A stretch of 64,000 nt of DNA, taken from NCBI GenBank assembly GCA_963764165.1, contig CAVXRD010000002.1:2688001-2752000 (forward strand), read 5' to 3'. Shown here one piece after another: positions 30,045 through 47,803 of this stretch (its first letter is position 1; every line of letters begins with the position of its first letter). The DNA comes from an uncultured Verrucomicrobiae bacterium (lineage in GTDB: Bacteria > Verrucomicrobiota > Verrucomicrobiia > Limisphaerales > Palsa-1400). A model generated the notes under the pieces. It was not told the origin of the DNA. It worked only from the letters and a program-made list of their open reading frames with translations, and did not search any database. A program made the position numbers and the translations under genes.

Positions 30045-30120
30045 AGAGATTCCAATGAATGGAACATACAAAACGGCCTGCGATTAGCAACAGGAGAATG
30101 TTTGGGCGCAAGATTTTAAT

Positions 30121-30280
30121 TGGACCGCGGCTGTGTCGAAGACCAGCCGCAGCCGCTTCGAAATTAGAGGCCGTTGGAAAGATCACCCCGATTTGCCGAT
30201 GATGGTTCCGAAGTTTTGAGTATTTTCAGGTTTTCGGTTGTTTGGGTGCTGCTGCGGCTGGTCTTCGACACAGCCGCGCC
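30121..30280. repeat. REPIN-like inverted repeat, family B
   Basis: CGCGGCTGTGTCGAAGACCAGCCGCAGC ... GCTGCGGCTGGTCTTCGACACAGCCGCG. Confidence 0.85.
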
Positions 30281-30321
30281 GCCTGCCGGCCTGCGCCCAT
30301 CACCCACTTCCAATCACACTC

Positions 30322-30551
30322 TGCTTGAACAATCGTGTTCCAGTTTGCCATGCGTCCTAAATACCACGAAAGGATGTATTTACAAGCGTAATTGACGTGA
30401 AAGGCTTTCAGGCTTATATTGCTCCCTGTCGCCGCCAACGCGTGCTCTTTGACATATTGCGGATTTTCGCGATTCCGGGCCGGGGGGCCTAATGATGCGT
30501 GATCGGGGCATTGCACGGTATTGCACCCTATTGCACCCTTGGTTTTCGCGA
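30322..30551 (-). repeat. Dispersed ~230-bp non-coding element, copy 1
   Basis: Reverse complement aligns by eye with 36802-37124 (CGCGAAAACC.AGGGTGCAATAGGGTGCAATA...CCCCGATCACG...TCAAAGA.CACGC...GTCAATTA.GCTTG...ACGATTGTTCA). Confidence 0.75.
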
Positions 30552-30603
30552 CGAAAAGCTCGTCACCCCGGGCTCTCGTTCGGCGGCTGACTCGAACCGG
30601 AAA

Positions 30604-30699
30604 TTGAACAGGAGGGAAGACCGAGGACGCAGAGATAACGGCCCTTTTCTCTAGGAATCGTTTTCTCTTCTCTGCGCCCTCGGTCTTCCTCCTGTTCAA
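30604..30699. repeat. CGCAGAG-type imperfect inverted repeat
   Basis: TTGAACAGGAGGGAAGACCGAGGACGCAGAGA / TCTCTGCGCCCTCGGTCTTCCTCCTGTTCAA. Confidence 0.8.
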
Positions 30700-30797
30700 G
30701 GCTTTATTTTCCCAGCAACGTGGGTGAGACGCCTCTAGTGACGCTTGAATCCATTTCGATTCTTGCAATTCGCCGCCATTGAGAGGATTCAATTCCG

Positions 30798-32057
30798 ATG
30801 CAAATTCACCGGCGTGAGTTCATTCGCAGCGGTTGCGTGGCGGCGGCTGCCGTGGGCGCATCGTCGATTTTTTCGCAACTTTCTCCCGCCCATGAAAAAC
30901 AAATGCTTCCGATTGATGAATCTTTCGACCAGACGGTGAACGCGTTTATGAAAGCGCGCCGTGTTCCCGGCGGGGCGCTGGCGGTGGTGAAAGATCGCCG
31001 GTTGGTCTACGCCAGGGGATACGGCTTTTCCGATTTAGATAAGAAGGAAGCCGTCAAACCGGATGCGCTTTTTCGTATCGCCAGCATTTCAAAGCCGTTC
31101 ACCGGGGTGGCGGTGATCAAGCTCGTCGCAGCGGGGCGGCTCGACATCGATGCGCCCGCGTTTCCGCTCCTTGGCATTGAGCCGCTGCCTGGCAAGACGC
31201 CTGACGCGCGCTTGAACCAAATTACCGTCCGGCATTTGCTGCATCATACGGGAGGATGGGACCGCGACAAGAGCGGCGATCCAATGTTCATGTCGGAGAA
31301 AATTGCCCACGCTGTCGGCGACACGCCGCCTGCCATGCAGCGCGCCATCATTCGTTACATGATGGGGCAGCCGCTGGATTTCGACCCGGGCGGCAAATAC
31401 GCCTATTCCAATTTCGGCTACTGCGTGCTTGGGCGCATCGTTGAGAAAATCTCCGGCCAGAAGTACGACCAATTCGTGCAAAAGGAAGTGTTGGCGCCCA
31501 TCGGAATTCACCGGATGCGCCAAGGCAGGTCCGCCCTGGCCGATCGCGCTCCAGGGGAAGTCATGTATTACATGCCCGAGCGCAAAGCGGGCGAGGACGC
31601 AGCGAAGACGCAGCCATATGCGGGATTCTGCCTGGAAGCGATGGATTCGCATGGCGCGTGGATCGCATCGGCGGTTGACTTGGTGCGATTTGTCGCTGCG
31701 CTGGATGATCCGGCGCGCGCGAATTGGTTTTCGCAGCCGGCCCATCGCATGCTTTACGAGCCGCCGGCCCGGCCCGTCTCGCGCGCGGCCAACGGCGCCA
31801 TGGAACCAACGTATTACGCGTGCGGCTGGTCCGTGCGGCCCGTTGGAAACGCGGCGAACTACTGGCACAACGGCAGCCTGCCCGGCACCGCGACGCTGCT
31901 GGTGCGGCGTTACGACGGATTGTCCTGGGCCATGCTTTTCAACCAGCGTTCCAACGACAAAAAACTTCCCGACGGCGAAATCGACGGTGCGCTGCACCGG
32001 GCCGCCGATTCGGTGGCGGAGTGGCCCGCGCACGATCTGTTCGGGAGCTTCGCGTGA
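30798..32057 (+). CDS. Tat-exported serine hydrolase (beta-lactamase/AmpC-like fold)
   Basis: IHRREFI Tat motif, FRIASISK (SxxK), YSNFGY, WHNGSLPG. Confidence 0.9.
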   Translation: MQIHRREFIRSGCVAAAAVGASSIFSQLSPAHEKQMLPIDESFDQTVNAFMKARRVPGGALAVVKDRRLVYARGYGFSDLDKKEAVKPDALFRIASISKPFTGVAVIKLVAAGRLDIDAPAFPLLGIEPLPGKTPDARLNQITVRHLLHHTGGWDRDKSGDPMFMSEKIAHAVGDTPPAMQRAIIRYMMGQPLDFDPGGKYAYSNFGYCVLGRIVEKISGQKYDQFVQKEVLAPIGIHRMRQGRSALADRAPGEVMYYMPERKAGEDAAKTQPYAGFCLEAMDSHGAWIASAVDLVRFVAALDDPARANWFSQPAHRMLYEPPARPVSRAANGAMEPTYYACGWSVRPVGNAANYWHNGSLPGTATLLVRRYDGLSWAMLFNQRSNDKKLPDGEIDGALHRAADSVAEWPAHDLFGSFA

Positions 32058-32410
32058 GATGTTTCACTCACGACGCGGTGGCCGTTGGAACGTGCGCAAA
32101 TTGCGGACGCGGCCTGTGCCCGGAGTGCGTTCGAATTGCGCCCGGCAGCGGTTCCCGGCTGACGTGCTCGGACGCCTGCGCCAACGCGCTCGCGCAACGA
32201 GATCGTTCTCTCGAAATGCTGCTGGATAAAAGCAGGCAAGGCGCGCGGGCCAATTCGGTTTATTACTTTGTCAGCGGAATACTTTCAGCGGGCGCCGCGC
32301 TGGCCTCGTGGCACTGGGAAATGCCCCAATTGCTGACTTGGTTTTTGGGCGGCTCCGCCGTCGCTTTGATCGTTTCAGGAATTTGGTTTGGGCGCGCGGC
32401 GAGGCGGTAG
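32054..32410 (+). CDS. Hypothetical membrane protein with N-terminal Cys/His zinc finger (B-box-like)
   Basis: GTG overlapping the upstream stop; CFTH...CANCGRGLCPEC...CSDAC, then two TM helices. Confidence 0.75.
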   Translation: MRCFTHDAVAVGTCANCGRGLCPECVRIAPGSGSRLTCSDACANALAQRDRSLEMLLDKSRQGARANSVYYFVSGILSAGAALASWHWEMPQLLTWFLGGSAVALIVSGIWFGRAARR

Positions 32411-32819
32411 AGCGGGTCGGGCGCGTCTCACTTTTTGGGCAAATGGCTCAGAGCATTAGCTCCGTAGGAGCGGCATAATCCCGGCGGCATCAAATTATTA
32501 TAATTCCGAATCCCTCAAACTGTTGAATGCGTGACAAATCAAAACGCAACCTTGATTTGCGAATAACACGATTTGCCTTCGTCTGGCACACCGTCATACT
32601 TTGGCGAAGTTACGAAGACGAAGTCGCGAAAGGCTCTGGATTACCCGGATCAGACACGCGGAAGCAAATTGGCGGCGGAAAGTAAGGAAGAAGGCAAACG
32701 CGCTTTCCCCTAAACAGCGTGCGAAGCTTTTCGAAAAGGCATGGCGATAATCTATGGGGGCGACGGGACAAAGGAAGCTTCTCGCACTTGACACCAATTT
32801 TCTTTCCTCGCCGCGATGT

Positions 32820-33674
32820 TTATTTCTTCCGTTCTCGAGCGCTGGGATGAAGGTGAATCGGCGGCGGAATTGGAATCGCGCGTGAGGGCGTGGGGGGCTT
32901 GGGCAACGCAGACGGCGCTGGGGGCGCGGGCGTGGCCGGCGGCACCGGCGTTCCGATGATCGTTGGTTTTGCGGAGGCCGGGTGAATAATCGAGTTGGCT
33001 ATCTCGCCAATTTTCGTGTCCGGGAATTTCATTTCGCCGAAGTGAAAACCGGCGCGCGATGCGGCTTCATCGATGACTCCGCCAAGTGTGGGAAATTGGA
33101 GCGGCGCAGGAGCATTGGACCGTTCCAGGACGTCATAGCCATTGACGACCCACTCAAGCTGGCCGGTGCGGATGTCTACCATCAAGCCTTGCACGGGCAC
33201 GCGCGGGCCGATGAGCGGACTTTGCCGGATTAATTCCACCGCGCGCACGACATTGTGGTGCTCGCTGTCAAACACACCAAAATATTCCGCGATGTTGTCT
33301 GGCAATTGAGAGCGCGGGATTCCCAGCCCTTTGAAAAGCTCGGTCAATTCGTTGATCGTCGTGTGGCGGACTTTGCAATCGGTATGGCCGATGACAACTA
33401 TCTCGCGGCCGCCCTTCACGGCGCACGCCAGCGAGATCGAGCGCATGGTGCTGCTCAGCGGGGACGTGATGATGTTGCCCGCGTTGCGGAGCCAGATGAA
33501 CTGCTCGTCCGGCAAGGCCAGCGCGCCCGGCAGAAGCCGGTTCAAGCGCGGGTCAATGCACGTCAGCGCGACGATCGGAAGCTCCGCCGTATAATCGGCC
33601 ACATGGATGCCGGCGGACAGGTCTCCCGACACAGCCCGGCGGTTTGCGTCAAGTATGGCTTCAAAAAGTCGCAT
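32820..33674 (-). CDS. Beta-class carbonic anhydrase with Pro-rich tail
   Basis: TCIDPRL, LRNAGN, GHTDC zinc ligands. Confidence 0.88.
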   Translation of the reverse strand: MRLFEAILDANRRAVSGDLSAGIHVADYTAELPIVALTCIDPRLNRLLPGALALPDEQFIWLRNAGNIITSPLSSTMRSISLACAVKGGREIVVIGHTDCKVRHTTINELTELFKGLGIPRSQLPDNIAEYFGVFDSEHHNVVRAVELIRQSPLIGPRVPVQGLMVDIRTGQLEWVVNGYDVLERSNAPAPLQFPTLGGVIDEAASRAGFHFGEMKFPDTKIGEIANSIIHPASAKPTIIGTPVPPATPAPPAPSALPKPPTPSRAIPIPPPIHLHPSARERKK

Positions 33675-33764
33675 GCTCAGTTTCGTCAATTTTCTGCAAC
33701 CGATGCCTGCTTGGCTTCGGTGTTCATGCTGAATATTTATACAGCCGAATCAGCGATGGCAACG

Positions 33765-35312
33765 TCACTTTTGTTCGTCCGCTGGGGGTGGCGGTTCGCT
33801 GGTCTGGCGCTGCTCCATCGCTTTTCGCAGCGCAGGAACTTGCTCGATCAATTTCTCGAACTTGATGCCGGTCAAGCTTTCGATCACCGGCGGAAGCTGG
33901 CTCATGATCTGGGTGACGTCGCCGGTCAATTTGCTGGCGCCGCCGCCGGGGCCGTCGCCGCTGTTGATGATCACAATCTTCTCCGTCTTTCCCAGCGGCT
34001 CGCTGACTTTGCCCGCCAATTCCGGCAGGATGCGCACAATCATTTCCACAATGGCCGCCTGATTGTATTGCTTGAAGGATTCCGCCTTGAGCTTCATCGC
34101 TTCGGCGGTCGCCGCGCCTTGCGCTTCGATCACGGATGCCTCGGCCAAACCGCGCGCTTTGTTGGCTTCGGCTTCGGCCAGGCCGGTGGCTTTCGCAACG
34201 TCGGCGGCGGCGAAACCCCGGGCCTTGGTGGCGGAAGCATTGCCAGCGGCTTCGGCTTCCAATTGGAACTTGGTGGCGTTGGCCAGCGTTTCGACGCGGT
34301 AACGCTCCGCATCGGCCGGCTTCTGCACGTTGGCTTCCAATTCGCGCTGCTTGCGCATGATTTCCTGCTGTTGCAACTCGATCTGCTTCTGTTTCTCAAT
34401 GATGCTGACTTGAATTTCCTCGGCCTTCACCAACTGGCCGGTCTTGAATTTCTGCAAGTCGTAAGCGAGGTCGGCCTCGGCTTTCTTTTGATTGACAGCA
34501 GCTTGGTATTGCGCGACGTTCGATTGATAATCCCGCTGCGCCTCGGCGATCTTCGTGTCGGCGACGTATTTCGCTTCCTGGCCGGCTTGGGTGGCTTGGG
34601 CGGAGCGGATCATCGCGTCGCGATCCGCCTCGGCCTGGGCGATGGTGGCGTCGCGTTTGACTTGGGCGATGCGCGGCTTGCCCAGCGCGTCCAGGTAACC
34701 TTGCGTGTCGCGAATATCGCGGATTGTAAAACTCACAATGGACAAACCCATGTTGGCCATGTCGCCCGCCGCGACCTCCTGCACCTTGGATGCGAACGCG
34801 TCGCGATTCTGGTAAATGTCCTCGACGGTCATCGTTCCCAAAATGGCGCGCAGGTGGCCTTCGAGCGTCTGCATGGCGACGCCTTTGATTTCGTCGATGG
34901 TCTTGCTCAAGACTTGCTCGGCGGCGGTGGCGATCGAAACGTCGTCACCCTTGATTTTGATTTGCGCCACGCCATCGACTTTCACCGGGACACCTTTGCT
35001 GGTGTAAACTTCCGGCGTTTGGACATCGATGGTCAGCAATTCCAGCGAAAGAATGTCGACCTTCTCCAAAGCAGGGAGGACAAACGTGCCGCCACCTTTG
35101 ACAACGCGGAAGCCGCGATACTGCACAGAGCCATCAGGACTCACAAACTTATGCCTATGACCGGAGACGATCAGGACCTGGTTGGGCCCGACTTTCGTGT
35201 AGCGGCTGGCGAGGACGGCGGCGACAAGAAACAGGAAAACCACCAGACCGACGACTGCCATGATGACCGTGGCGAGGCCACCAAGTTCCAAGGCGGCGAA
35301 GTAGGCATGCAT
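33765..35312 (-). CDS. Flotillin/SPFH-domain protein
   Basis: N-terminal TM, SPFH domain (TLEGHLRAILGTMTVE), AEA-rich coiled coil. Confidence 0.93.
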   Translation of the reverse strand: MHAYFAALELGGLATVIMAVVGLVVFLFLVAAVLASRYTKVGPNQVLIVSGHRHKFVSPDGSVQYRGFRVVKGGGTFVLPALEKVDILSLELLTIDVQTPEVYTSKGVPVKVDGVAQIKIKGDDVSIATAAEQVLSKTIDEIKGVAMQTLEGHLRAILGTMTVEDIYQNRDAFASKVQEVAAGDMANMGLSIVSFTIRDIRDTQGYLDALGKPRIAQVKRDATIAQAEADRDAMIRSAQATQAGQEAKYVADTKIAEAQRDYQSNVAQYQAAVNQKKAEADLAYDLQKFKTGQLVKAEEIQVSIIEKQKQIELQQQEIMRKQRELEANVQKPADAERYRVETLANATKFQLEAEAAGNASATKARGFAAADVAKATGLAEAEANKARGLAEASVIEAQGAATAEAMKLKAESFKQYNQAAIVEMIVRILPELAGKVSEPLGKTEKIVIINSGDGPGGGASKLTGDVTQIMSQLPPVIESLTGIKFEKLIEQVPALRKAMEQRQTSEPPPPADEQK

Positions 35313-35355
35313 AAAGTTCCTTAAGGTTGCAGGGTTGAGGTTTGGGAAAGTTTAT

Positions 35356-35916
35356 TCAAACAAGCGAGACAAAGAATTGCGATTCCGCCACGCGCGTTAT
35401 TTTGACAGTCTGGCCGGTGGCCACCGGCAGGCCGGCTTGCTCGCGGGCGGGAGCGGTGTAACGGCTGCCGCCCTGCACATAGGCAATTTCGCCGACGCCC
35501 GCCGCCGGGATTGGCGAAATGACGGTGGCGGTTTTGCCGAGCAGTGAACTAGTTTGGCCTTCACTGGAGCTCTGGGTGCGACGGAAAACGTAGCCGAACA
35601 ATGCCGTCACCGCGAGGGCAATGAAAAGGCCGCCCACCAGCGAGAGAGGAGTGCTGATCCAGACGCTCTTGGTCGGGCCGATGTGGGAGAATATCAAGCC
35701 AAACCCGCCAAACGCCGTGAGAAAGGCGCAGATGGCAGTGGGGCTGAAAAGTGAAATGCCGGGCATTCCGGTGTGCTCATAACCCGCTTCGGCGTGGCCA
35801 CCCGTTCCGAGATCCATGTGCCCGTCCGTCCCGCTGATGTGGTGCCCAAAAAAGACGCTGACAACCGTAAAGAGGAGGCCGAACAAGAAACAGCCCAAAT
35901 ATACATACTCTTCCAT
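35356..35916 (-). CDS. NfeD-family membrane protein
   Basis: Three TMs plus C-terminal OB-like LLGKTATVISPIP...GEI; canonical position upstream of flotillin. Confidence 0.85.
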   Translation of the reverse strand: MEEYVYLGCFLFGLLFTVVSVFFGHHISGTDGHMDLGTGGHAEAGYEHTGMPGISLFSPTAICAFLTAFGGFGLIFSHIGPTKSVWISTPLSLVGGLFIALAVTALFGYVFRRTQSSSEGQTSSLLGKTATVISPIPAAGVGEIAYVQGGSRYTAPAREQAGLPVATGQTVKITRVAESQFFVSLV

Positions 35917-36020
35917 AGTCGTGTCCTTTCGCTGGCCGCCAGGCATTTTATCTGGCGACACCTCAGGTATACAGAGCGCGGCGGGCGAAAGCAGCTATAA
36001 AATGAACAGCCATTTGTAAC

Positions 36021-36147
36021 GGGTGGGGGACAAAATTCTTCGGCGCGATGTTCGTTGAAGGTGGCAGAGGCGTCTCGCCTCTGCCGGTCTGCTTGAGCGG
36101 CGGGATGCCACTGCCACTCTGTTCGTGAAGAATTTTGTCCCGCGCCC
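36021..36147. repeat. MITE-like element, family C, with internal GTGG-REP pair
   Basis: GGGTGGGGGACAAAATTCTTC ... GAAGAATTTTGTCCCGCGCCC; internal GTGGCAGAGGCGTCTCGCCTCTGCC. Confidence 0.7.
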
Positions 36148-36284
36148 TTTGCAACGGCGGTCAGCTTCGGAACCCACCAAAAGGCCTCTTGCAGTTTTCA
36201 ATGGAATGAGAATTTCGATGCAGCCGTTGACCGGAAATCCGCTGGAAGAAAGCAAGCCGTGGCAGAGCACATCATTGAATATGC

Positions 36285-36720
36285 ATATAATCTCGAAAAA
36301 CCCGCTACACCCGCTACATCGTTGATTATCAACCAGATAAACCGCTACATTTGGTTCCTCGCCATTTTCGGTGGAATGAGACAACTGGTTAGCCGTCGTT
36401 CCGGGACAACCCATTTGGAATCCAGGGTTGGTCTTGGCTTGGCCAAAGCTCGGTATAGTATATGATCTCGAAAAAGGGGCAACACCCGCTACACGGTTGA
36501 CTATCAACGAGATAAGGGGCAACAAAAATAGCAACAAACCCGCAACAGACCCGCAACATTTCTTCCCGCGCTGTCGGGTTGCATGAAACGCGGCGTCTTT
36601 CCGTCGTTCCCTTAAAATTTTCATCAAGATGCCTGCACCCTCATTGTTCCATTGAAAACAGCGAGGAACCCTACATTTGGGGCTACAGAGCCGCTACAAA
36701 CCCGCTACATTTCTTCCGGC
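36285..36720 (+). repeat. Three degenerate direct-repeat units rich in CCGCTACA/GCAACA, two with a GTTGA(T/C)TATCAAC palindrome
   Basis: Units at about 36285-36355, 36460-36566 and 36640-36718; palindromes at 36321-36333 and 36496-36508. Confidence 0.7.
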
Positions 36721-36801
36721 GGGTGCGAATTCTGGGTGCGCGACCGTCCTGGACGCCCTGGTTAGCGTCTCGCCAACCATGCAAATGCGCCCCCCGCCTT
36801 A

Positions 36802-37124
36802 TCGCGAAAACCGAGGGTGCAATAGGGTGCAATAGCCTGCAACGCCCCGATCACGATTTCCGTTCCTCTGCGCACTCATCTTCTCTGCGCGAGAGTTCCT
36901 TTCCTTTGGTGGTTTCATCGCGGCAAGAAACGCAATCGCGCGCAGAGGAGCGGAGCACGCAGAGGTTCCCCGCGGCCCTGAAATGAACGCAAAATATCAA
37001 AGAACACGCCCTGACGGCGAGAGGGGAAAAATAAGGCCGAAAACCTTGTTTGTCAATTATGCTTGCAATTACACGCTTATGTGGCATTTTGCCCATGACA
37101 AACGAAACAACGATTGTTCAGGCG
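36802..37124 (+). repeat. Dispersed non-coding element, copy 2, interrupted by a CGCAGAG-type hairpin (36862-36965)
   Basis: Homologous to 30322-30551 in inverted orientation. Confidence 0.75.
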
Positions 37125-37195
37125 GGATCGGAAGCCATATTTCATTCCACTGAAAAGACTAGGGGGAACCCCACAAACTCAATAACGAACCACCC

Positions 37196-37273
37196 AAGCT
37201 CGCCGCGCTCCAGACGCACAACCAAAGCTTGATGCAGCAGCTTTTCCCTTCCCCGCCTGGGGTGGCAGCATGA
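37196..37273 (+). pseudogene. hsdS: 3'-terminal fragment of type I RM specificity subunit
   Basis: Translates KLAALQTHNQSLMQQLFPSPPGVAA*, matching the familiar HsdS C-terminal helix (KL.ALK.HKKGLMQQLFP). Confidence 0.75.
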
Positions 37274-37492
37274 GGAAAGGGGTTGCCGCTTCGCAGTCTT
37301 GGCAGCCTCTGTGGTGGAGTTGTTCCAGAAACGAAAATGAGACCGCGCAAGCTCACCAGCCTCACCGTTCAGAAACTCAGGGCGCCCATCGTGAAACACC
37401 TCGAAATGTCAATTGATGTCTTGCGGGGAAGTTGAGACGCGCGTATGCTTCGTCTATTGCGAATTTAATTTCCTCAACTCTGAGCCGTTCAC

Positions 37493-38005
37493 ATGAACAG
37501 ACACCAATTGGCCACGCTAATTTCTTGGGCCGGGGAACAAGGATTCTCCGGGCGCAAACGCCTGCAAAAGGTCGTGTTCTTTTTACAGCAGGCAGGTTGT
37601 GATTTAAGGTGCCACTACACACTGCATCACTTCGGCCCTTACTCGCGAGATGTCGCCCATGCCTGCGACGAGATGGTGGCAGCGGGATTGGTCATTGAAG
37701 ACGGCGGGCCGCAGAACGGCAACATGCAATACTTATACAAGCTGAAGCCCGATATTCGGGAGTTGGTCAACCAGTCCCCTGAGCCCCAAGTAGAGGAATT
37801 TCAGGCTCTCGGCAAGGAGTTGATTGAGAAGGACCTTTGGCAGTTGGAGCTAGGCTCGACCATCCTCTTCTTTCATCGGCAGAAGCTTGATTGGAATCAC
37901 GCATTGGACGAGGCGTGCAAATTCAAAAAGGTGTCAACGACTGATGAAGCCAGCCAAAGCGCGCTCAGCCTCGCAAAGCGTTTTCACGCTGAGGACGCAA
38001 GCTAA
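37493..38005 (+). CDS. YwgA-like (SocA/Panacea-like) winged-helix protein
   Basis: GRKRLQKVVFFLQ...YTLHHFGPYS...GLVIE...YLYKL resembles Bacillus YwgA. Confidence 0.75.
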   Translation: MNRHQLATLISWAGEQGFSGRKRLQKVVFFLQQAGCDLRCHYTLHHFGPYSRDVAHACDEMVAAGLVIEDGGPQNGNMQYLYKLKPDIRELVNQSPEPQVEEFQALGKELIEKDLWQLELGSTILFFHRQKLDWNHALDEACKFKKVSTTDEASQSALSLAKRFHAEDAS

Positions 38006-38021
38006 CCATCGAGGTTGACGG

Positions 38022-39375
38022 GTGTCCGACAAAGTCTTTCGCGATCCGCTTTACAATTACATCGCCTTCGATCGGAAGCGTGATGGTTGGTTGATTGACT
38101 TGATCAATTGTAAGGAAGTGCAGCGGCTGCGACGAATTCACCAGTTGGGCGTCAGCAATTTTACTTACCCCGGAGCGGACCACACGCGATTCGCCCACAG
38201 CCTCGGCGTGACCCACCTAATGCTGCTGGTGCTGGAACACCTCGAAGGCGTCAGCGATGCTGAGAAGATCAAAAAGGCCAGGCAGGCACTGCTGGCGACG
38301 GCCCTGTTGCATGACGTTGGACATGGTCCCTTCTCGCATCTTTTTGAGCCGTGTCTGGGCATCGACCACGAACAATGGTCCATCGCAGTCATCCGGGATG
38401 ACAATTCGCAGGTCCACCAGATTCTAAGAAAAGAGGATGCCTATCTTCCAAACCATGTTGCCGATCTGATCGGCTCAGATAACACGAAGCATCCAGCATG
38501 GCAACGGGCGCTCATGTCCAGTCAGTTGGACGTGGATCGATTGGACTATCTCCGCCGGGACAGTCTTTTCACTGGCGCGGGATACGGCCATTTCGATTGG
38601 CACCGTCTCCTGACCACTGTGCAATTCGACAAAGACGATACGGATTTGGTCTGGCCCGCAAAATCAGCGATGGCAATCGAAGAATACATCTTCGCCCGCT
38701 ATTACATGTATCAGAACGTCTATCTGCATAAGACCACACGGGGGTTTGAGCAGTTGCTTCAAGCAATGTGGAAGCGGGCTGACAGTCTCAGGCGGGACGG
38801 GAAAGATATAAACGCGAATCCTATTTTGGAAAGATTTTGGAAATCCGAGACGCCCGAGCCCGAAAAACTTCCAGTTGAAGATTATCTGAAAGTTGAGCAG
38901 TTCACAGGTACTTGAGCAGATTCAGCGGTGGACCTCACACTCCGACAAGTCGCTGGCCGATTGTGCGCGCCGCTTTCTTGATCGGGATGGTTTTGCCATG
39001 ATCGAACCGCCTCCACCGCCGAATCCCCTCAAGCCAGACGACTTGGGCAAGTGGGAGCCAGAGCTTCACAAGTTGCTGGAAAAAAAAGGCTATGAAGATC
39101 CCGAGATGTATTGCTTGTCGGATCGGATCCAAGGTAAATACCGCCAGCCCTATCGAGAGGAAAAGGACCCGGAAGCCCAGTCGGCTGTAAACACCATCCG
39201 CGTGGTGGTAGACAACAAGCCAATAGCAATCGGGGATTACTTGCCAAGGCTCAAAGCAGTGATTGCGCCACCCGAAGACCGGATTCTTTATTATGTTCCA
39301 AAGGAAATTCGCGAAGAAGCAAAAGCATTGAGCCAGCGGTTGCGGCCATCAGCAAATGTTGCCTTAAACTCATGA
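38022..39375 (+). pseudogene. HD-domain phosphohydrolase (YwfO/SAMHD1-like dNTPase family), one +1 frameshift near 38907
   Basis: RLRRIHQLG, HTRFAHSLGV, LLHDVGHGPFSH, LDVDRLDYLRRD, MYQNVYLHK. TTC ACA G GTA CTT joins ORFs 38022-38915 and 38893-39375 into about 450 aa. Confidence 0.85.
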
Positions 39376-40041
39376 CCGCTCAAAATCAACAACGCCTGGG
39401 CAAAGTCCTTTGGAACATCGCCGACCAGTTGCGCGGCGCGATGAACGCGGACGATTTCCGCGATTACATGCTGGCGTTCCTGTTCCTGCGCTATCTGTCG
39501 GACAATTACGAGGTCGCCGCCAAGCGGGAGTTGGGCCGGGATTATCCCGCCTTGCCCGCCGGGGACAACCGTGTGCCGCTGGCGCTCTGGTATGCCAACA
39601 ACCCGGCGGACGTGGTGGATTTCGAGAAGCAGATGCGGCGCAAGGTGCATTACGTCATCAAGCCGGACCATCTCTGGGCCAGCATCGCCAATCTGGCGAA
39701 GTCCCAAAGCGGGGAATTGCTCGAAACCTTGCGGGAAGGCTTCAAATACATTGAAAACGAATCGTTCGAGAGCACGTTCGGCGGACTATTTTCCGAAATC
39801 AATCTCGGTCGGAAAAGCTCGGCAAGACGCACGCGGACAAAAACCGGAAGCTGTGCGACATCATCAAGGAAATCGCCAAGGGGCTGAATGAATTTTCCAG
39901 CGACATTGACGCGCTGGGTGATGCCTACGAATATCTGATCGGCCAGTTCGCCGCCGGCTCGGGCAAAAAAGCGGGCGAGTTCTACACGCCGCAGCAGATT
40001 TCCACGATTCTTTCGCGCATCGTCACGCTGGACAGCCAGGA
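39372..40041 (+). pseudogene. hsdM: Type I RM methyltransferase, 5' part only, frameshifted near 39809
   Basis: LWNIADQLRGAMNADDFRDYML...; second frame DALGDAYEYLIGQFAAGSGKKAGEFYTPQQIS...DSQE, then abrupt break at a repeat. Confidence 0.92.
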
Positions 40042-40080
40042 AAGAACCTTCGCGCAGAGAAGATGAGTGCGCAGAGGAAC
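40038..40080 (-). repeat. CGCAGAG-type half site at the hsdM breakpoint
   Basis: 31 bp identical (inverted) to 36862-36892: GTTCCTCTGCGCACTCATCTTCTCTGCGCGA. Confidence 0.85.
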
Positions 40081-40120
40081 ACAAAAACAAATGCACACTT
40101 CGCCGAAAACAGTGGGGAAC

Positions 40121-40165
40121 GTGAAAGCCCACAAGAAATGGCCGATGCAGCCGATCATTCCATGA
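40121..40165 (+). pseudogene. hsdS: Second, more degenerate hsdS 3' fragment
   Basis: VKAHKKWPMQPIIP*; each deviation from LKAHKKGLMQQLFP is a single-nucleotide change; TGA overlaps the next ATG. Confidence 0.6.
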
Positions 40166-40677
40166 GCAAAAAGGTCATCGTCATCGCCGGGCCCAACGGC
40201 GCGGGAAAGACGACCTTTGCGCGCTCGTTCCTGCCGCAGGAGGCGCAGTGCCCCCGCTTCATCAATGCTGATTTGATTGCGGCGGGCCTTTCTCCTTTTG
40301 CGCCGGAAGCCTCCGCCATCAAAGCGGGCCGCGTCATGTTGGAAGAAATCGCCTCCTGCGCCCGGCGCGGTGAGAGCTTCGCGTTTGAAACGACCCTCTC
40401 CGGACGTGGCTATCTTGCCCATATCCGCCGCTGGCGTGCGGAGGGTTATCATGTCGGTCTGATTTTCCTGTCGTTGCCCCATGTCGATGCCGCTGTGGCC
40501 CGAGTCACCGCCCGAGTGCGGCAGGGAGGACATTTTATTGCGGAGGATGTCATTCGTCGCCGCTTTTTGGCTGGTCTGCGCAACTTTAACGCCTACAAAC
40601 TGGCGGTGAGCACTTGGGGCAAATATGATAATACGGGCAACAGCCCGATCCTTCTTGAATGGGGAGAAAACGCATGA
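40162..40677 (+). CDS. Zeta-toxin/AAA_33-like P-loop protein
   Basis: IAGPNGAGKTT, FINADLIA, FAFETTLSG, RVRQGGH, YDNTG. Confidence 0.88.
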   Translation: MSKKVIVIAGPNGAGKTTFARSFLPQEAQCPRFINADLIAAGLSPFAPEASAIKAGRVMLEEIASCARRGESFAFETTLSGRGYLAHIRRWRAEGYHVGLIFLSLPHVDAAVARVTARVRQGGHFIAEDVIRRRFLAGLRNFNAYKLAVSTWGKYDNTGNSPILLEWGENA

Positions 40678-40877
40678 AAACAAGAGATATCGCCGAAGCA
40701 AAAAGTCCTGACCTGCGGAACGCCCTAGCCGCCATGCGCCGCGCCGCCGAGATGGCCCGCCAAACCGCCATCCAGACCAACACGGGTATCATCATGGTGA
40801 AGGACGGAAAGATTGTTCACATTTCCGCCCAGGAACTCCGTGAAGCCGCCGCGAACGGCGCGGGAACCACGAAATGA
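40674..40877 (+). CDS. Small partner protein of the zeta-like ATPase (putative antitoxin)
   Basis: 67 aa, ATGA-coupled at both ends; ALAAMRRAAEMAR...IIMVKDGKIV. Confidence 0.7.
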   Translation: MKTRDIAEAKSPDLRNALAAMRRAAEMARQTAIQTNTGIIMVKDGKIVHISAQELREAAANGAGTTK

Positions 40878-41286
40878 CCGCTCAAAACCAACAACGCCTG
40901 GGCAAAATCCTGTGGAACATCGCCGACCAATTGCGCGGGGCGATGAACGCGGATGATTTCCGCGATTAAATGCTGGCTTTCCTCTTCCTGCGCTACCGCT
41001 GGGAACCGAAGGAGGACATGAGCGATGATGTCCGTTTCAAGAACTACGGTTTGGCGCCCAAGTCCGCCGCTGACATCGCTTTTCTCCTGCATGGCTTTCA
41101 CTTCTTGAAGGATCAGGGAGTCATGGCGACATATCCCGCTACATCAGCACGGCGACTGCGGAGCCGGAAATCGATCTCACCGAGACACACAACAAACTTG
41201 TCGCGATTGAAAAGACAATTTCCATCGCGACGGCGAAGCATAACAAGTTTCTTAAAGAGCTGGGTCTGCCCCCACTTCCGGGCTGA
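40874..41286 (+). pseudogene. hsdM: Second hsdM copy, collapsed by a nonsense codon and two internal deletions
   Basis: 5' end repeats 39372 onward (TAC>TAA at 40967), jumps to RWEPK...FKNYGLAPKSAAD.AFLLHG, then to the C-terminus ISRYISTA...KHNKFLKELGLPPLPG*. Confidence 0.88.
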
Positions 41287-41327
41287 CCCACAAACAAAGG
41301 CAGGTCGTCATTCCCCGTGGAGACCGT

Positions 41328-42110
41328 TTAATTCTGCGGGTGGAAGAGGCTTTTTACCTTTTGCGTGGCGGACTTTACGGCGGTTTTGCCTTCTGCCACC
41401 GCGTCTTTGCCGAGTTGCTTGGCATTGTTGGCGACGGCGAGGGCGGATTCGCTCAGAAGCGCGTGGATCATTCGCTGGCCGACTTCAACCGGCGATATTC
41501 CCTGCCCGCCGCTGCCGAGATCTGTCAAATGAATATCTGGCAGCGCGAGCGCGAGCGTGCGGTCGCCGGAGAGGGTGGAGCGGTATTGCAGCTTGGCGCC
41601 GGTAATGACGAGGTCGTCGACTTCCAATCGCTTTTCGGGCGCTTTCTTTTTTGGGGCGGCGGGGCTGCCGGGCGGCGCCGCGGAATTGGGGGCGGTCGAG
41701 GAGCTGCCGATGTATTCGTTCAAATTGTTTTCAATCTTGCGGAGATTGTTGTCCGTCAACCCGCCCTCAAGCGTGATCACGGGCGATTTCACCTTGATGC
41801 TCTCGATTACCATCTTGTCGGAGAAAAATGTGCCGGGCTTGAACTTCACCGTGACATCGCCGACGTCCATAGCCGAAGGCGTTTTGCAGCCCGGCGGATT
41901 GCCCAGCTCAAATCCTGTCAACTGAATGCGCCAGGCCATGAGCCAGACTTGCGCGCTCTTTAATTTGACGTCGGTCTTGGTCGCGGACGGCCCGATTTTC
42001 TCCACGCCGCGCTTGATGATCGTGCCGAGCGACAAGGCGGCCGCCAGGAAGGCAATCAAAAACACGAGGAGGAATCCGGCCAGCGATCTAACAATCCATT
42101 TTCGCTTCAT
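41328..42110 (-). CDS. AsmA-like membrane-anchored protein
   Basis: N-terminal TM, LGNPPG, VIESIKVKSPVITLE, LPDIHLTDLG; start at MKRKW. Confidence 0.7.
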   Translation of the reverse strand: MKRKWIVRSLAGFLLVFLIAFLAAALSLGTIIKRGVEKIGPSATKTDVKLKSAQVWLMAWRIQLTGFELGNPPGCKTPSAMDVGDVTVKFKPGTFFSDKMVIESIKVKSPVITLEGGLTDNNLRKIENNLNEYIGSSSTAPNSAAPPGSPAAPKKKAPEKRLEVDDLVITGAKLQYRSTLSGDRTLALALPDIHLTDLGSGGQGISPVEVGQRMIHALLSESALAVANNAKQLGKDAVAEGKTAVKSATQKVKSLFHPQN

Positions 42111-42714
42111 GATTTTTCCCTGTTTGAGCTTCCTGAAGGAGGTTTTCGTAATCCGCAGCCGTGTCAATGTCCGTAGCCGCCCCCGGAAATTCCAGCGCAT
42201 GGACGAATTCGCGGTGGCGCTCGATGATCCGCTTGGCGCCTTGCGATGCCGAGAGCGCCGCCAGTTCCGCGTGATATCTCTTGTCGAACCCGGCCGGAAC
42301 TCCGAGCGTTCCAGCATAAGCCGCGGCGGCAATTCCGCCGCGTTCCTCGCAGGCGCGCGCTAATTCCCGAAGAAAATCCGATGTGACGAATGGCTGGTCG
42401 CTTAACATCAGCAAAATTGTGTCTGGCGGATTCGTTGAGGACATCAGGCGTTGCGCGCCTGCCCTAATTGACGTGCCGATGCCCGCTCCCCAATCCACAT
42501 TGCGAACAATCGTGATCGGCAATCCCGCCAGTTCCCGCTCGATCCGCTGTCCATGCGCGCCGAGGACCACCGAAACCGGGCCGCACTGAGATTCCAAAGC
42601 GGTGCGAACGGCCCGCAGAATCAAGCTCGCGCCTTGAAACTCAAGCAGTTGCTTGGGCCGGCCGAGCCGCGAGGAAACGCCGGCCGCCAGGATGATTATG
42701 CCGGCAGAGCGCAT
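42088..42714 (-). CDS. mocA: Molybdenum cofactor cytidylyltransferase-like nucleotidyltransferase
   Basis: ILAAGVSSRLGRPKQLL, LSDQP, DIDT; in the Xdh operon. Confidence 0.88.
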   Translation of the reverse strand: MRSAGIIILAAGVSSRLGRPKQLLEFQGASLILRAVRTALESQCGPVSVVLGAHGQRIERELAGLPITIVRNVDWGAGIGTSIRAGAQRLMSSTNPPDTILLMLSDQPFVTSDFLRELARACEERGGIAAAAYAGTLGVPAGFDKRYHAELAALSASQGAKRIIERHREFVHALEFPGAATDIDTAADYENLLQEAQTGKNHEAKMDC

Positions 42715-43898
42715 GAGCGTGCTTCACTTGTGAGGCCGCGAATAAAGGAATGGAAACTGGAATCGCCCAAGGCCGCCCTGATCGCGCCCTTTTTTTGCCG
42801 GAGCTTCCCGCCGTCGCGGCCGGTGGACACCGCTTGAACTTCCGCCAGGATCGCCAGCGCAATCTGTTCCGGCGTTTCGGCGCCGATATCGAGGCCGATG
42901 GGATTATGCAGCGAAGGCAAATGCTCTTCGCGCAATTCAAATCCATCCTGTCTCAGCTCGGCGAGCATTCTCTCCGCGCGCTTCCGCGGCCCCATCAATC
43001 CAAGATACGGCAGGCGCAGGGGCAGAAGCATTTTGAGCCAGCCTTGATCGATCATGTAATTGTGCGTCATGATCACCGCCGCCGTCCGATAGTCAAATAT
43101 CGGAACAATCTCTTCTTCGCCGGGCCGTGCCACTATTACATTTTGCGCGAGCGGAAAACGCGCGGACGTTACGTAGTCAGGGCGCGCGTCGATGACTGTC
43201 ACACGAATTCCCAGTTCGTGCGCCAGGCGCGCGAGCGGCATCGCATCATGGCCGGCGCCAAGAATGATCAGATTGCGCTGGGGGCGAAATGTCTCGGCGA
43301 AGACACGGACCTTGCCACCGGGAAATTCGAGATCCCCGATTCCGCTGGGCTCGGTCGCCAAGGCAGATTCCGCGACAGCCGCCAACAAATCCGCAAATGG
43401 GCCGTCATTTAAATTTGTTGCGCGCCGTCCCGATTCATCAACGGCAACCCGGTCACCGAGTGTCAAACACACATCCCCCGAGGTTCCAACAACTGTGGCC
43501 GCAGCTCCGGTGTTGCGGCGTTGAAGCGCGCCTTCCAGAAAATCTAAAAAATGGCCGTCGTCTTGTTCGCCGCCGATCCGCGGCGGAAGGCACTCCAGCA
43601 GCAGTTCAACAATTCCATTGCACCCGACGCCCGAGCCAAACACAAGATCGCGATCCGATGACGTGTCGTAGGTCATCAGCGCCGCCTTTCCGTCGCGCAT
43701 CACCCTCATGGCGCGATCCACCACGTCCTGATCGAGGCAGCCGCCGCTGATGCAGCCGACGGTGCGGCCATCAGGCAGCACGAGCATGCGCGCCCCGGCG
43801 TGCCGATAACTGGAACCCGACGTCTGCACGATCGTGGCCAGCGCCATCGGCGACTGGCAATCCTTTGATGCGGCGAGGATGTCCAGCAGTTCTTTCAT
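42696..43898 (-). CDS. xdhC: XdhC/CoxI molybdoenzyme accessory protein
   Basis: GSSYRHAGARM, ISGGCL, GCNG, GAGHDA, MTHNY, PIGLDIGAETPEQIALAI; start at MKELL. Confidence 0.92.
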   Translation of the reverse strand: MKELLDILAASKDCQSPMALATIVQTSGSSYRHAGARMLVLPDGRTVGCISGGCLDQDVVDRAMRVMRDGKAALMTYDTSSDRDLVFGSGVGCNGIVELLLECLPPRIGGEQDDGHFLDFLEGALQRRNTGAAATVVGTSGDVCLTLGDRVAVDESGRRATNLNDGPFADLLAAVAESALATEPSGIGDLEFPGGKVRVFAETFRPQRNLIILGAGHDAMPLARLAHELGIRVTVIDARPDYVTSARFPLAQNVIVARPGEEEIVPIFDYRTAAVIMTHNYMIDQGWLKMLLPLRLPYLGLMGPRKRAERMLAELRQDGFELREEHLPSLHNPIGLDIGAETPEQIALAILAEVQAVSTGRDGGKLRQKKGAIRAALGDSSFHSFIRGLTSEARSCALPA

Positions 43899-46177
43899 AT
43901 CAATTTGTCGGGCGTGATGGGCAGTTCGCGAATGCGTTTCCCACTGGCGTGATAGATGGCGTTGCCAATGGCCGCCGCGATTCCCGTAATGCCAATCTCC
44001 CCAATGCCGCGCGCGCCCATGGTCGAAATATGCGGATCGGGCTTGTCGATGAATTGAACATCGATTTCCGGAATATCGGCATGAACCGGCACCAGGTAAT
44101 TGGCCAAATCGCGAGTGACAATGCGTCCGCGATTTGGGTCGTAAACCGTTTCCTCCATCAAGGCCATTCCCAAACCGAAAATCATGCCGCCCATGATCTG
44201 GTTCTTGGCCGTCTTCAAATTCAAAACTTTTCCGATGTCCATGACCGCCGCGCAATGCGTCACGCGCGCGGTTCCGAGCAGCGGGTCAAACAAGACGCGG
44301 ACAAATTGCGCTCCAAACGAATGGAAGTTGTAAGGCGAAGAATCGAAGTCGAGGTCGATATTTTCGCGTCCGGGGCTTTTTGGCTTCTCCTCTTTTTTTC
44401 CGGTTTCGCGGGTCGTCCCTTTGGTGGAAGCTTCGCCTTCAACGTATTCAATTTTCCCGCGGCCAAGGATTTCGGCCACCGCCGCACCCTTGGACTCGTC
44501 GTCTTTCACCGACCAGCGGCCATTCCGAAACACCAGATTTTCCGGAGGAATCCCCGCGAGCGGAGATTGCTTATTTGACACCGCCAGTTGCAATAGTTTT
44601 TCCCGCGCGGCAAGGGCCGCCTCCTTTACCGCCGGCCCCACGCTGGCTGCGGTTTGCGAACCGCCCGAGACAGGGCCTTTCGGCAACGCGGAATCGCCGA
44701 TCTTCACTGTCACGCGTTCGACGGGAAGCCCGAGCGCCTCGGCGGCAATTTGCGCCAGTATCGTGTAAGTGCCCGTGCCGATGTCCTGCGTGCAACTCAT
44801 GGCTTCGGCGTGGCCGTCCGCGAAAATGCGGACTTTCGCCGAGGCGGGCACGCGGTTGGCGGGATAAATGGCCGTTGCCATTCCGTAGCCAACGAACATC
44901 TCACCCTCGCGCATCGAGCGTGGTTCGGGCGGGCGCTTGCTCCAACCGATGGCTTCCGCGCCGCGCCGATAGCACTCGCGCAAATTCTTCGAGGACCACG
45001 GCTTCCCTTTTTGCGGGTCTTTCTCGGCGTAATTAATCAACCTCAGTTCGATCGGGTCGATCTTGAGTTGATAGGACAATTCATCAAGAGCGGTCTCGAG
45101 GGCAAATGTCCCCGTGGCCTCTCCGGGCGCGCGCATGGGGCCGGGCGTGCCGCGATTGACGCGTGTCAATTTGTGGGAAACGCGGAGATGGGGGCATTCG
45201 TAAAGCAATTGTGTGGCAAGGCCGGATGTTTCCACGAACTCGTCCACAAACGAAGTTTCCGTAAGCACCTGATGATCGATGGCCAGAAGTTTTCCGGCTG
45301 GCTCCGCCCCGAAGGCGACGGTTTGAACCGTGCGCGCGCGGCGTCCGTTGCAGGTGAACATTTGCCGGCGGTCCAAAACTAGTTTGACAGGCCGCCCAAG
45401 TTCGCGCGCGGCCATCGGGGCCAGAAATGAGTGCGCCCAGGTGAAGCCCTTGCAGCCGAATCCCCCGCCGACAAACAATGAAATCAATCGGACTTGCTCC
45501 GGCAAAATTCCGAACACCGCGGCAATGGCATCGCGACTTCCAATCACAGCTTGCGTGGAATCATAAATGGTCAATTTATCGCCCACCCAGGACGCAATGG
45601 TCGCGTGGGGTTCCATCGGATTGTGATGATAGACGGGCGTGGAATACGCTTGCTCAAATTGCGCGGGGGCCGATTTCATCGCCGCCTCGACGTCGCCGCG
45701 CGTGATTTGCAGCGGGCGGCCCATCGATTTCTGCGGCTCGTAGGCCTTGGTGGTGCGCCCGTCGAAATCCGTCACGCTGGGTTCCGCTGTGTACTCCACC
45801 TCGATCAGCGCCGCCGCGTGCTCGGCCTGCTCGAATGATTCGGCCACAACCATCGCGATGTGCTGCCCGTCGTAGAAAATTCGCCCGCTCTGCAGCGGCA
45901 GAAGCTCCTTCTCGCCAAGCTTGATGGGAGAATCGGCCGACTCGGGGGGCGATTTTAATTTCGGAGCGTTCTGCCATGTGTAAATTGCCAAAACGCCTCC
46001 GGCCGCCTGGGCTTTGCTGGTGTCGATTTTTTGAATCGTGCCGGAGCAAATCGTGCTTTGAATCGTGACGGCATAGGATAGGTTCTTGACCGGAAATTCC
46101 GCCGCGTAAAGCGCCCCTCCCGTTGTTTTAAGACGGCCGTCAATGCGATCCACCGGCTCTCCAATTAAGGTGCTCAT
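43895..46177 (-). CDS. paoC: Aldehyde oxidoreductase molybdopterin-binding subunit (YagR/PaoC type)
   Basis: HHNPMEPH, GGGFGCKG, MRAPGE, DIGTGT, GGSQ, GIGEIG. Confidence 0.88.
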   Translation of the reverse strand: MSTLIGEPVDRIDGRLKTTGGALYAAEFPVKNLSYAVTIQSTICSGTIQKIDTSKAQAAGGVLAIYTWQNAPKLKSPPESADSPIKLGEKELLPLQSGRIFYDGQHIAMVVAESFEQAEHAAALIEVEYTAEPSVTDFDGRTTKAYEPQKSMGRPLQITRGDVEAAMKSAPAQFEQAYSTPVYHHNPMEPHATIASWVGDKLTIYDSTQAVIGSRDAIAAVFGILPEQVRLISLFVGGGFGCKGFTWAHSFLAPMAARELGRPVKLVLDRRQMFTCNGRRARTVQTVAFGAEPAGKLLAIDHQVLTETSFVDEFVETSGLATQLLYECPHLRVSHKLTRVNRGTPGPMRAPGEATGTFALETALDELSYQLKIDPIELRLINYAEKDPQKGKPWSSKNLRECYRRGAEAIGWSKRPPEPRSMREGEMFVGYGMATAIYPANRVPASAKVRIFADGHAEAMSCTQDIGTGTYTILAQIAAEALGLPVERVTVKIGDSALPKGPVSGGSQTAASVGPAVKEAALAAREKLLQLAVSNKQSPLAGIPPENLVFRNGRWSVKDDESKGAAVAEILGRGKIEYVEGEASTKGTTRETGKKEEKPKSPGRENIDLDFDSSPYNFHSFGAQFVRVLFDPLLGTARVTHCAAVMDIGKVLNLKTAKNQIMGGMIFGLGMALMEETVYDPNRGRIVTRDLANYLVPVHADIPEIDVQFIDKPDPHISTMGARGIGEIGITGIAAAIGNAIYHASGKRIRELPITPDKLI

Positions 46178-47160
46178 GCCGCGTCTCCCGCCACGTGTGC
46201 CAGCGCGCGAACCAACGTTCGCTTGGCCAGTTCAATTTTGAAGCCGTTATGTGTTTGAGCTTTCGCAAATTTCACCGCTGCGTCTGCCGCCAAGTGAAAT
46301 GCCGCGTCATTAGGAGCCTTCCCTGCCAGAGCGTCTTCCGCGTCAAGCGAACGCCACGGCTTGGCGCCGACGCCGCCGAGCGCGATGCGCGCTGATTGAA
46401 TCTTGCCATCGCGGATATCCAAGGCCACAGCCGCCGAGGCGAGCGCAAATTCGTAAGACGCGCGGTCGCGGACTTTCAGATAATGCGAGCGCCGCGCAAA
46501 TTCCAGTGGCGGCAATGTCACGCCGAGGATGAGTTCGCCGGGCTGGAGTTCGGTTTCGATTTCCGGCGTATCTCCCGGGAGCTTATGAAATTCATGAAAG
46601 CGGATATCGCGCTTTTTGTCCGGCCCCGCGACGTGGATAGCTGCGTCCAGCGCCGCCATCGCCACGCACATGTCGGACGGATGAGTGGCAATGCACTTCT
46701 CGCTCGTGCCGAGCACCGCGTGGCCACGGTTAAAACCAGCGATGGCCGAACAACCCGAACCTGGCTTTCGCTTGTTGCAGGCGAAAGCAACGTCGTAAAA
46801 ATAAGGGCATCTCGTGCGCTGCATGAGGTTGCCGCCGAGGGTGGCCATATTGCGCAATTGAGGCGAAGCTCCGGACAGCAGCGCTTCCGACAAGACCGGG
46901 TAGCGTTTGGCAATTTCGGAATGGCAAGCCAGATCACTATTGCGCACCAGCGCGCCCACAAAAACGGAACCGTCCGCTTGAGTCTCGATGCCGCGCAGGC
47001 GGAGGGCGTTGATGTCAATGATACGGCTCGGCGCTTCCACCCCGAACTTCATCAGATCCAGCAAATTCGTTCCGCCGGCTATTAAGCGTGAAGAGCCGAC
47101 GGCAACCGCCTCGAAGGCGGCCTGTTCGTTTTGCGCCTGGATGAAGTCAAACGGACGCAT
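46174..47160 (-). CDS. paoB: Aldehyde oxidoreductase FAD subunit (YagS/PaoB type)
   Basis: [27 protein letters not shown]...[23 protein letters not shown]. Confidence 0.9.
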
Positions 47161-47791
47161 GCGGATGAGAATCTGAACCGCCCTGGACTTCGCGAATGGC
47201 AGCGCGAATATTTTGATACGCGCCGCAGCGGCAGATATTCCCGCTCATCAGTTCCTTGATGTCCGCGTCCGAATGCGCCTTGCCCTCGCGCAGCAGCCCC
47301 ACCGCCGAACAAATTTGTCCCGGCGTGCAGTAGCCGCATTGGAACGCGTCATGTTTGATGAACGCCGCCTGCATCGGATGCAACTCTTCGCCCTTGGCCA
47401 GCCCCTCGACAGTCGTGACGGATGCGTGATGGCACATCGCCGCCAGGCGAAGGCAGGAGTTAATGCGCACGCCGTCCACCAGGACGGTGCAGGCGCCGCA
47501 TTGTCCGTGATCGCAGCCTTTCTTCGTGCCCGTCAAATGAAGATGCTCGCGCAAGGCGTCCAGCAGCGTCACCCGCGGATCAAGCGTGAGCTGCCGAGGA
47601 GCGCCGTTGACGGTGAGCGCGACTTGCATTTGGCGAGATCCCGCTTCGGCGCCCTGCGCGGCGGCATCGAACGCCATTCCATGGACGCCAAGCGCCACCA
47701 AGGTTCCGCCAATGGCGGTGTGGCCAATAAATTCCCGGCGGGTTAGTCCGCCGGGAGAGGATTGTTCGGGTGCTGGCTCGTCCGAATTCAT
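47147..47791 (-). CDS. paoA: Aldehyde oxidoreductase 2Fe-2S subunit with Tat signal (YagT/PaoA type)
   Basis: [37 protein letters not shown]. Confidence 0.92.
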
Positions 47792-47803
47792 TTTGAATCG
47801 GGC

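Follow-up and report, generated by a model that had tools for sequence, protein, structure and literature searches.

A predicted SAMHD1-type dNTPase gene coupled to a YwgA-like partner gene recurs in restriction-modification loci: a candidate defence module with a decayed copy in an uncultured Verrucomicrobiae bacterium

Organization and decay of the locus

The window, the whole stretch of 64,000 nucleotides that was analysed, carries on its forward strand a pair of genes set among the debris of a type I restriction-modification (RM) locus. The first gene of the pair (37493..38005, +) is intact and encodes a 170-aa YwgA-like protein, here called the partner, with the motifs LQKVVFFL at residues 24-31 and GPYS at residues 48-51, and with a winged-helix N-terminal half and a helical C-terminal half that together are predicted to adopt the fold of the DarG C-terminal domain. 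Just as an earlier note on this DNA had described, its stop codon is separated by 16 bases from an HD gene that begins with GTG at 38022. The HD gene is split: its N-terminal 295 codons (38022..38915, +), of the EF1143/SAMHD1 type and with a complete metal and catalytic set, come to an early end after a +1 shift at ~38906-38908, and its C-terminal 155 codons (38908..39375, +), which carry the allosteric Arg321 and the C-terminal domain, continue out of frame. The frameshift recorded in the same note corresponds to one extra base at this point relative to the closest relative, locus L044 (81% nucleotide identity over 2571 columns).

Upstream of the pair lies an hsdS 3' tail (37196..37273, +), with a 79% nucleotide match to the 3' end of hsdS in L044 and matches also in L006 and L015; the remainder of the gene has been deleted. 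Downstream, the HD stop codon shares four bases (ATGA) with the start of a type I hsdM, of which the 5' part is present (39372..40042, +; Pfam HsdM_N and N6_Mtase), with a frameshift near 39810 and a truncation at ~40042 near a dispersed repeat that has many copies across the genome. Two stretches of the window, 36190-37135 and 40016-40121, belong to families of dispersed non-coding repeats whose partial copies number well over 100 and occur on every one of the five contigs, and one of these repeats coincides with the end of hsdM. Next come a gene for a Zeta-toxin-like P-loop kinase and a 67-aa neighbour (40063..40877, +; Pfam Zeta_toxin, E 5e-7), apparently a second RM cargo, since similar DNA precedes the pair in L014 and L015, and then a second copy of hsdM (40874..41290, +), internally deleted and with an in-frame stop, which matches 39372-39493 at 93% and the hsdM of L044 in three separate stretches. 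The genome has two HSDR_N and three Methylase_S matches, all away from this locus. The order hsdR-hsdS-ywgA-HD-hsdM is found in L044, whose hsdM is itself frameshifted, and in L011, L049 and L065; the locus in the window is a remnant of this arrangement, all five genes of which are present in relatives. The position of RM cargo that had been claimed for the pair is correct, with the amendment that the RM system is itself ruined, hsdS being reduced to its final 78 bp and hsdM shifted and truncated. Promoter and terminator scans of the locus returned chance-level signals only, and no Rfam match was found in 30000-48000.

It is improbable that the HD gene is active here, with its frameshift either introduced in assembly or read through. 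Both frameshifts do sit in two-base runs, and dN/dS against L044 is low on either side of the HD break (0.07 before, 0.11 after; 0.20 for the partner), values which in both genes indicate purifying selection acting until recently. Two shifts within 2.6 kb are nevertheless not expected (p about 0.002) from the assembled-sequence background, for which 364 ORFs in 17 stretches of one same-genus genome were used, 100 of them matched at 60% identity or more and two of these 100 frameshifted; the locus is damaged in other ways too, by deletions, an inserted repeat and an in-frame stop, and a slippery run is absent at the shift site. Programmed frameshifting was rejected on the absence of that run and on the continuous frames of the relatives. 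The window's copy of the pair is a pseudogene, a decayed example of natural pairs that exist intact elsewhere, one of them, L011 from Schlesneria, in a cultured strain whose genome is complete.

The HD enzyme

The N-terminal frame (38022-38915) holds the complete H...HD...D metal set that had been noted, as H59, H97-D98 and D172. Among the 120 best homologues listed, identity is 77-93% (the window's own protein excepted) and length mostly ~440-470 aa. The best match of solved structure is EF1143 of Enterococcus faecalis (E 1e-59, residues 3-432), and a model built for the unbroken L044 protein (pLDDT 91) superposes on the EF1143 structures 4LRL, 2O6I and 3IRH at TM 0.83-0.84 and on SAMHD1 at TM 0.65-0.72, so that the SAMHD1-like class named earlier is borne out. 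The likeness to EF1143 covers the whole-chain fold (TM 0.83, ~31% identity), the metal ligands, the His-Glu dyad, the residues that bind the sugar and the larger part of the dGTP allosteric site. Residue roles follow the published account of EF1143 (PMC3190883) and were mapped through a 24-residue offset taken from alignments. H59, H97, D98, D172 and H116 are kept in all 83 clade rows and E109 in 82; metal ligands, dyad and sugar-binding residues together are kept in 81-83 of the 83 aligned clade members. On this evidence the protein is predicted to be a dNTP triphosphohydrolase of the EF1143/SAMHD1 type, and by analogy with EF1143, which hydrolyses all canonical dNTPs with Mn and is described as a regulator of the dNTP pool in PMC3190883, it would form a tetramer and hydrolyse dNTPs.

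The allosteric site departs from EF1143 in one respect. Counterparts of K14, Q41, R44 and R326 are conserved, and position 64 is F or L (83 rows); the equivalent of K330, which in EF1143 binds the third phosphate of the activator (PMC3190883), is Ala in 71 of 83 rows and Lys in five, the Priestia protein discussed below keeping Lys. A second difference from EF1143 is the mobility of the gene and its linkage to a partner. Because the equivalent of Arg326 lies past the frameshift, the truncated product of the window is likely inactive. Membership in the anti-phage dGTPase family was rejected: the N-terminal 297 aa of the window protein score 21.8 bits on NF041026 against a cut-off of 400, and full-length HD homologues reach 24-26 bits on the PADLOC dGTPase profile.

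The partner protein

The partner has no Pfam match, and many of its homologues carry the JGI label YwgA. The earlier note had likened it to the SocA/Panacea antitoxins, a comparison that is not borne out at the level of the profile. SocA_Panacea (PF13274) is matched by none of 105 partner family members at E 0.05, the domain is carried by 13% and 21% of members in the partner's Atlas neighbours, the partner motif reads GPY where that of Panacea reads GPV, and no Panacea structure is among the rows listed in the fold search. The partner does match the DarG profile of PADLOC weakly (E 3e-11, profile positions 177-306); across PADLOC and NCBIfam this match is confined to positions 177-306 or 187-305 and scores 34 bits against a cut-off of 250. 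In a model of pLDDT 92, the sole Foldseek hits with E <0.001 are to the DarG C-terminal domain (7YK3), and a wide structural search with VIA-align gives Z 13.6 for this domain (rmsd 4.3, 162 aligned), with the next row at 8.4. Ordinary winged-helix regulators of the PadR/MarR kind gave Z 5.5-6.5 over ~80 residues in the same search. The partner is thus predicted to have the antitoxin-like fold of the DarG C-terminal domain, which PMC13621843 describes as a DarT-binding inhibitor homologous to DUF4065/Panacea. By analogy with these DarG and Panacea domains, the partner likely binds the HD enzyme directly and inhibits it.

The opposite direction of control is distinctly unlikely, but would still amount to defence: the partner would be a sensor or activator, the HD enzyme being quiet alone and switched on after the partner binds DNA ends, single-stranded DNA or a phage protein. 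A basic motif, RKxLQK, is near-invariant in the partner family and sits on the winged-helix scaffold; loss of the activator-binding lysine could require a new activator; relatives of the HD enzyme are tolerated without a partner; and a sensory role has been proposed for Panacea (Ernits 2023). Yet the sole full-length structural match of the partner is a toxin inhibitor, and the partner gene comes first in the operon, as in most type II systems, where the antitoxin gene mostly precedes the toxin gene. Restraint of the enzyme by the partner is the direction of control preferred here. The partner evolves ~2.3 times faster than the HD protein.

Linkage, distribution and decay of the pair

Loci were gathered with the partner as query and comprise 20 genome loci and the best 80 of 140 metagenome loci. 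The HD gene lies directly downstream of the partner in 77 of these 100; of the 23 others, 12 run out of sequence within 100 bases. With two loci added, clustering of the 102 at 90% partner identity gives 82 clusters, of which 70 are paired and 12 have the partner only; pairing in a two-gene operon, here with a 16-bp spacer, is a trait of type II toxin-antitoxin systems and is conserved in 70 of the 82. No alternative partner gene was evident beside the 11 partner-only loci inspected. In a quick tree, from which row L160 was ignored as being in the wrong frame, 29 partner-first HD proteins group on a single branch (SH-aLRT 100), to which the Priestia protein is, weakly, the closest of those sampled (SH-aLRT 80). 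A mirror-tree correlation of 0.70 between HD and partner shows co-inheritance only. Distant pairs, in either gene order, occur in L002, L028, L030, L040, L163 and L164.

The clade is rare and patchy. Its named hosts belong to the Planctomycetota and Verrucomicrobia, and neither gene was found in four of four same-genus genomes (85-95% complete). Among 400 genomes of the window's phylum, 16 have weak matches alone, 13 of them in frames of the size of a full DarG, and 400 genomes of the phylum of L011 gave no close HD. Searches of viral sequence yielded three pattern hits among IMG/VR contigs, none confirmed as a match, one weak hit in phage records, to a macrodomain protein, and no match in BFVD at E 0.001.

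The pair is often found broken. Both genes are intact in 36 of 81 representative loci; about ten have a broken or truncated HD gene beside an intact partner, two have a broken partner and an HD gene cut by the contig end, and two have both genes broken. The sole reverse case in the 81, a frameshifted partner beside an intact HD gene in L123, speaks against the restraint reading, and a 'broken' call for L008 was rejected as a false hit. Once gene lengths are allowed for, the expected surplus of loci in which the toxin gene decayed first falls short of significance (p 0.20 to 0.59); because the partner served as query, remnants with HD alone had no way into the set. Two loci that are 71% alike and not sisters, L047 (2170-2172, TAG) and L056 (1973-1975, TAA), have different stops at the same invariant Gln34 codon of HD, L056 being 96% identical to the intact L009; with ~35 HD codons a single change away from a stop, this agreement may be due to chance or mark a hot spot. 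A 494-aa frame on a single 3.4-kb contig (P0241) joins the partner to the N-terminal part of HD. This one hit among 8000 longer candidates was rejected as evidence of fusion, its C-terminus being out of frame.

Genomic context

An RM-type neighbour, defined as an RM gene, or an SNF2 helicase of the kind that accompanies type IIG loci, within 1.5 kb, is found beside 16 of the 31 paired clusters flanked by 1 kb or more on each side (25 of 70 when every paired cluster is counted) and beside none of 22 well-flanked HD loci that lack the partner (none of 30 in all). An SNF2 hit is the sole basis in two of the 16, and with eight query-donor loci excluded the comparison is 8 of 23 against 0 of 22. 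The p-values for context range from 3e-5 to 0.008 and overstate the case, because kin are not independent and the control HD proteins come from other clades. PADLOC, an independent source, likewise places type I, type III and type IIG genes beside the pair, and it further finds HmaC (L018), PD-Lambda-3_B (L013), a Shango-like helicase (L024) and others; the unrelated loci that host the pair are thus of type I, type III, type IIG-SNF2, Hma, GmrSD and Shango-like kinds. RM-like PADLOC hits also occur beside three of the partnerless control loci, 12 of the 31 well-flanked clusters have no nearby RM or PADLOC hit (one has a DUF433-DUF5615 pair), and L020 and L022 have in common a stable groEL-rmuC setting, which counts against a defence role. 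Defence contexts for homologous pairs are upheld by the RM-type counts and partly contradicted by the clusters without such hits and by the core genes that surround the pair in Priestia.

The placing of the pair in RM operons, often between hsdS and hsdM and in the window overlapping the start of hsdM, raises the idea of an RM helper, in which the HD enzyme would remove modified dNTPs, either phage-made shielding bases or recycled host methylated nucleotides, and so keep RM working. The action of EF1143 on all canonical dNTPs would suit it, and methylated dAMP is a known defence cue (10.64898/2026.01.15.699771). This is nonetheless very improbable: there is no residue sign of altered base specificity, the antitoxin-fold partner is left unexplained, and about half of the clusters have no nearby RM gene.

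Other gene arrangements were seen in passing. The region 3' of the pair in L012 (12055-19230) has an HNH gene together with three large genes (684, 455 and >950 aa) that have no Pfam or PADLOC match and possibly form a system not yet described. Two alphaproteobacterial plasmids (L187:3797-7416 and L188:3628-7419) carry in a row genes for a radical SAM protein, a 3'-5' exonuclease, an AAA ATPase and an EF1143-type HD protein, with no YwgA, adjoining a DNA methylase or an ABC three-component system; this is possibly another nucleotide-targeting defence operon. In L158-L162 the HD domain forms the final part of open frames 609-1007 aa long, and in L158 and L159 the part before it matches a PADLOC type II restriction enzyme profile, either a possible nuclease-dNTPase fusion or an overlapping gene.

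Counterparts in the Bacilli

In Priestia a related pair, HD then ywgA, lies among core genes including ung, pta, speE and argS, and the gene 3' of its HD gene is matched by the partner family with an HHalign probability of 99.5. We take it to be the ywfO-ywgA pair of Bacillus, from JGI labels, the annotation of its neighbours and synteny with B. subtilis. The two pairs are homologous (HD 37% identity, partner 31%) and differ in gene order, in the core-gene neighbourhood and in the activator lysine, which is kept in the Bacillus form. L026 (NZ_CP140268.1), L189, L190 and L191 are filed as plasmids, and are probably pieces of chromosome, since they carry core chromosomal genes. In B. thuringiensis, L. 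monocytogenes and S. aureus there is no ywgA beside the corresponding HD gene, which other genes directly follow, so that the enzyme family is evidently tolerated without the partner; the wider HD family being housekeeping and in no need of a partner, any toxicity would be a trait of the present clade.

These counterparts bring in the view that the pair is a housekeeping regulator of the dNTP pool with an optional accessory or transcription-factor partner, hitchhiking in RM loci as insertion hot spots. The core-gene context in Priestia and the stable context of L020 and L022 agree with it, as do the description of EF1143 as a pool regulator, the PadR/MarR matches of the partner and the place of the Priestia protein as nearest, if weakly placed, sampled sister. 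It is unlikely all the same, for the clade is rare, patchy, often broken and lodged in several unrelated defence loci, and the transcription-factor matches span only the N-terminal ~100 residues of the partner.

Relation to known systems

The PADLOC run proposed in the earlier note found no system matched by both proteins, giving instead weak, unrelated hits to DarG, PDC-M19A (E 8e-4) and dGTPase. That the pair is not a named defence system also stood, in that no study, experiment or system name for a YwgA-HD pair was found in the literature covered, most subscription journals and bioRxiv supplements being outside the search; a pairing of Panacea with HD had, however, been predicted in 2022. 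Cluster T34 in Dataset S1 of Kurata 2022 (PMC8832971) joins a YdhJ-type HD protein to a Panacea antitoxin as a predicted toxin-antitoxin pair in five rows, all marked 'notest', and two more such pairs in the same dataset were set aside as not TA-like. HD terms gave no hit in the main text of PMC8832971, nor in PMC10440598 and its supplements. T34 is likened to the present pair by table labels, not by sequence, and it differs in that its hosts are thermophilic Firmicutes and HD comes first, whereas here the partner comes first, has no Pfam Panacea match and sits in RM loci. YdhJ we presume to be a label of the EF1143 family.

Two characterized systems come close in part. The partner corresponds in sequence and fold to the DarT-binding C-terminal domain of DarG, but identity with DarTG was rejected, there being no macrodomain and no DarT, and the neighbour being a dNTPase. 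In the experimentally tested Clover system (PMC12265719), the toxicity of the dGTPase CloA is restrained by a second gene, CloB. The combination of an HD dNTPase effector with a second gene is shared; Clover differs in that CloA is a dGTPase-type enzyme held back by a nucleotide signal that a nucleotidyltransferase makes, whereas the present partner has no enzyme match. Identity with Clover was rejected because the partner model is a winged-helix plus helical domain and not a Pol-beta nucleotidyltransferase. Stand-alone anti-phage dGTPases have been reported by Tal et al. The tested dNTP-depleting defences in the literature found use dGTPase-type or phosphatase enzymes, none of them on the EF1143 branch. 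The pair is made of known types of part, its pairing predicted once in a table, and is a recurrent candidate defence module.

Proposed function and significance

One plausible explanation, which we favour by a little over even chances, is that the pair is a mobile toxin-antitoxin-like cassette in which a dNTP-depleting HD enzyme is joined to a partner that probably restrains it, the whole serving as a backup defence inside RM loci. The HD tetramer would hydrolyse the dNTPs of the cell; the partner would bind and restrain it, as the DarG C-terminal domain does DarT; infection would release the enzyme or switch it on; and phage that had escaped restriction would be starved of dNTPs for replication. 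The response to infection, whether release or activation, and the protection from phage are inferred steps. Loss of the Lys330 equivalent would, speculatively, fit a passage of control from dGTP to the partner protein. A fuller and bolder version of this explanation, which we consider doubtful as a whole, is that a SAMHD1-type dNTPase has traded dGTP allostery for control by a DarG/Panacea-fold protein and now guards RM, the partner letting go when a phage blocks or outruns restriction so that dNTPs collapse, and that ywfO-ywgA of the Bacilli is a domesticated form.

If the pair does defend its hosts, it would be an instance of a SAMHD1-like enzyme switched by a protein partner, on an EF1143 branch that shares the fold of human SAMHD1. 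It would also provide a function for the YwgA family and a test of the sensor role proposed for proteins of the Panacea/DarG fold.
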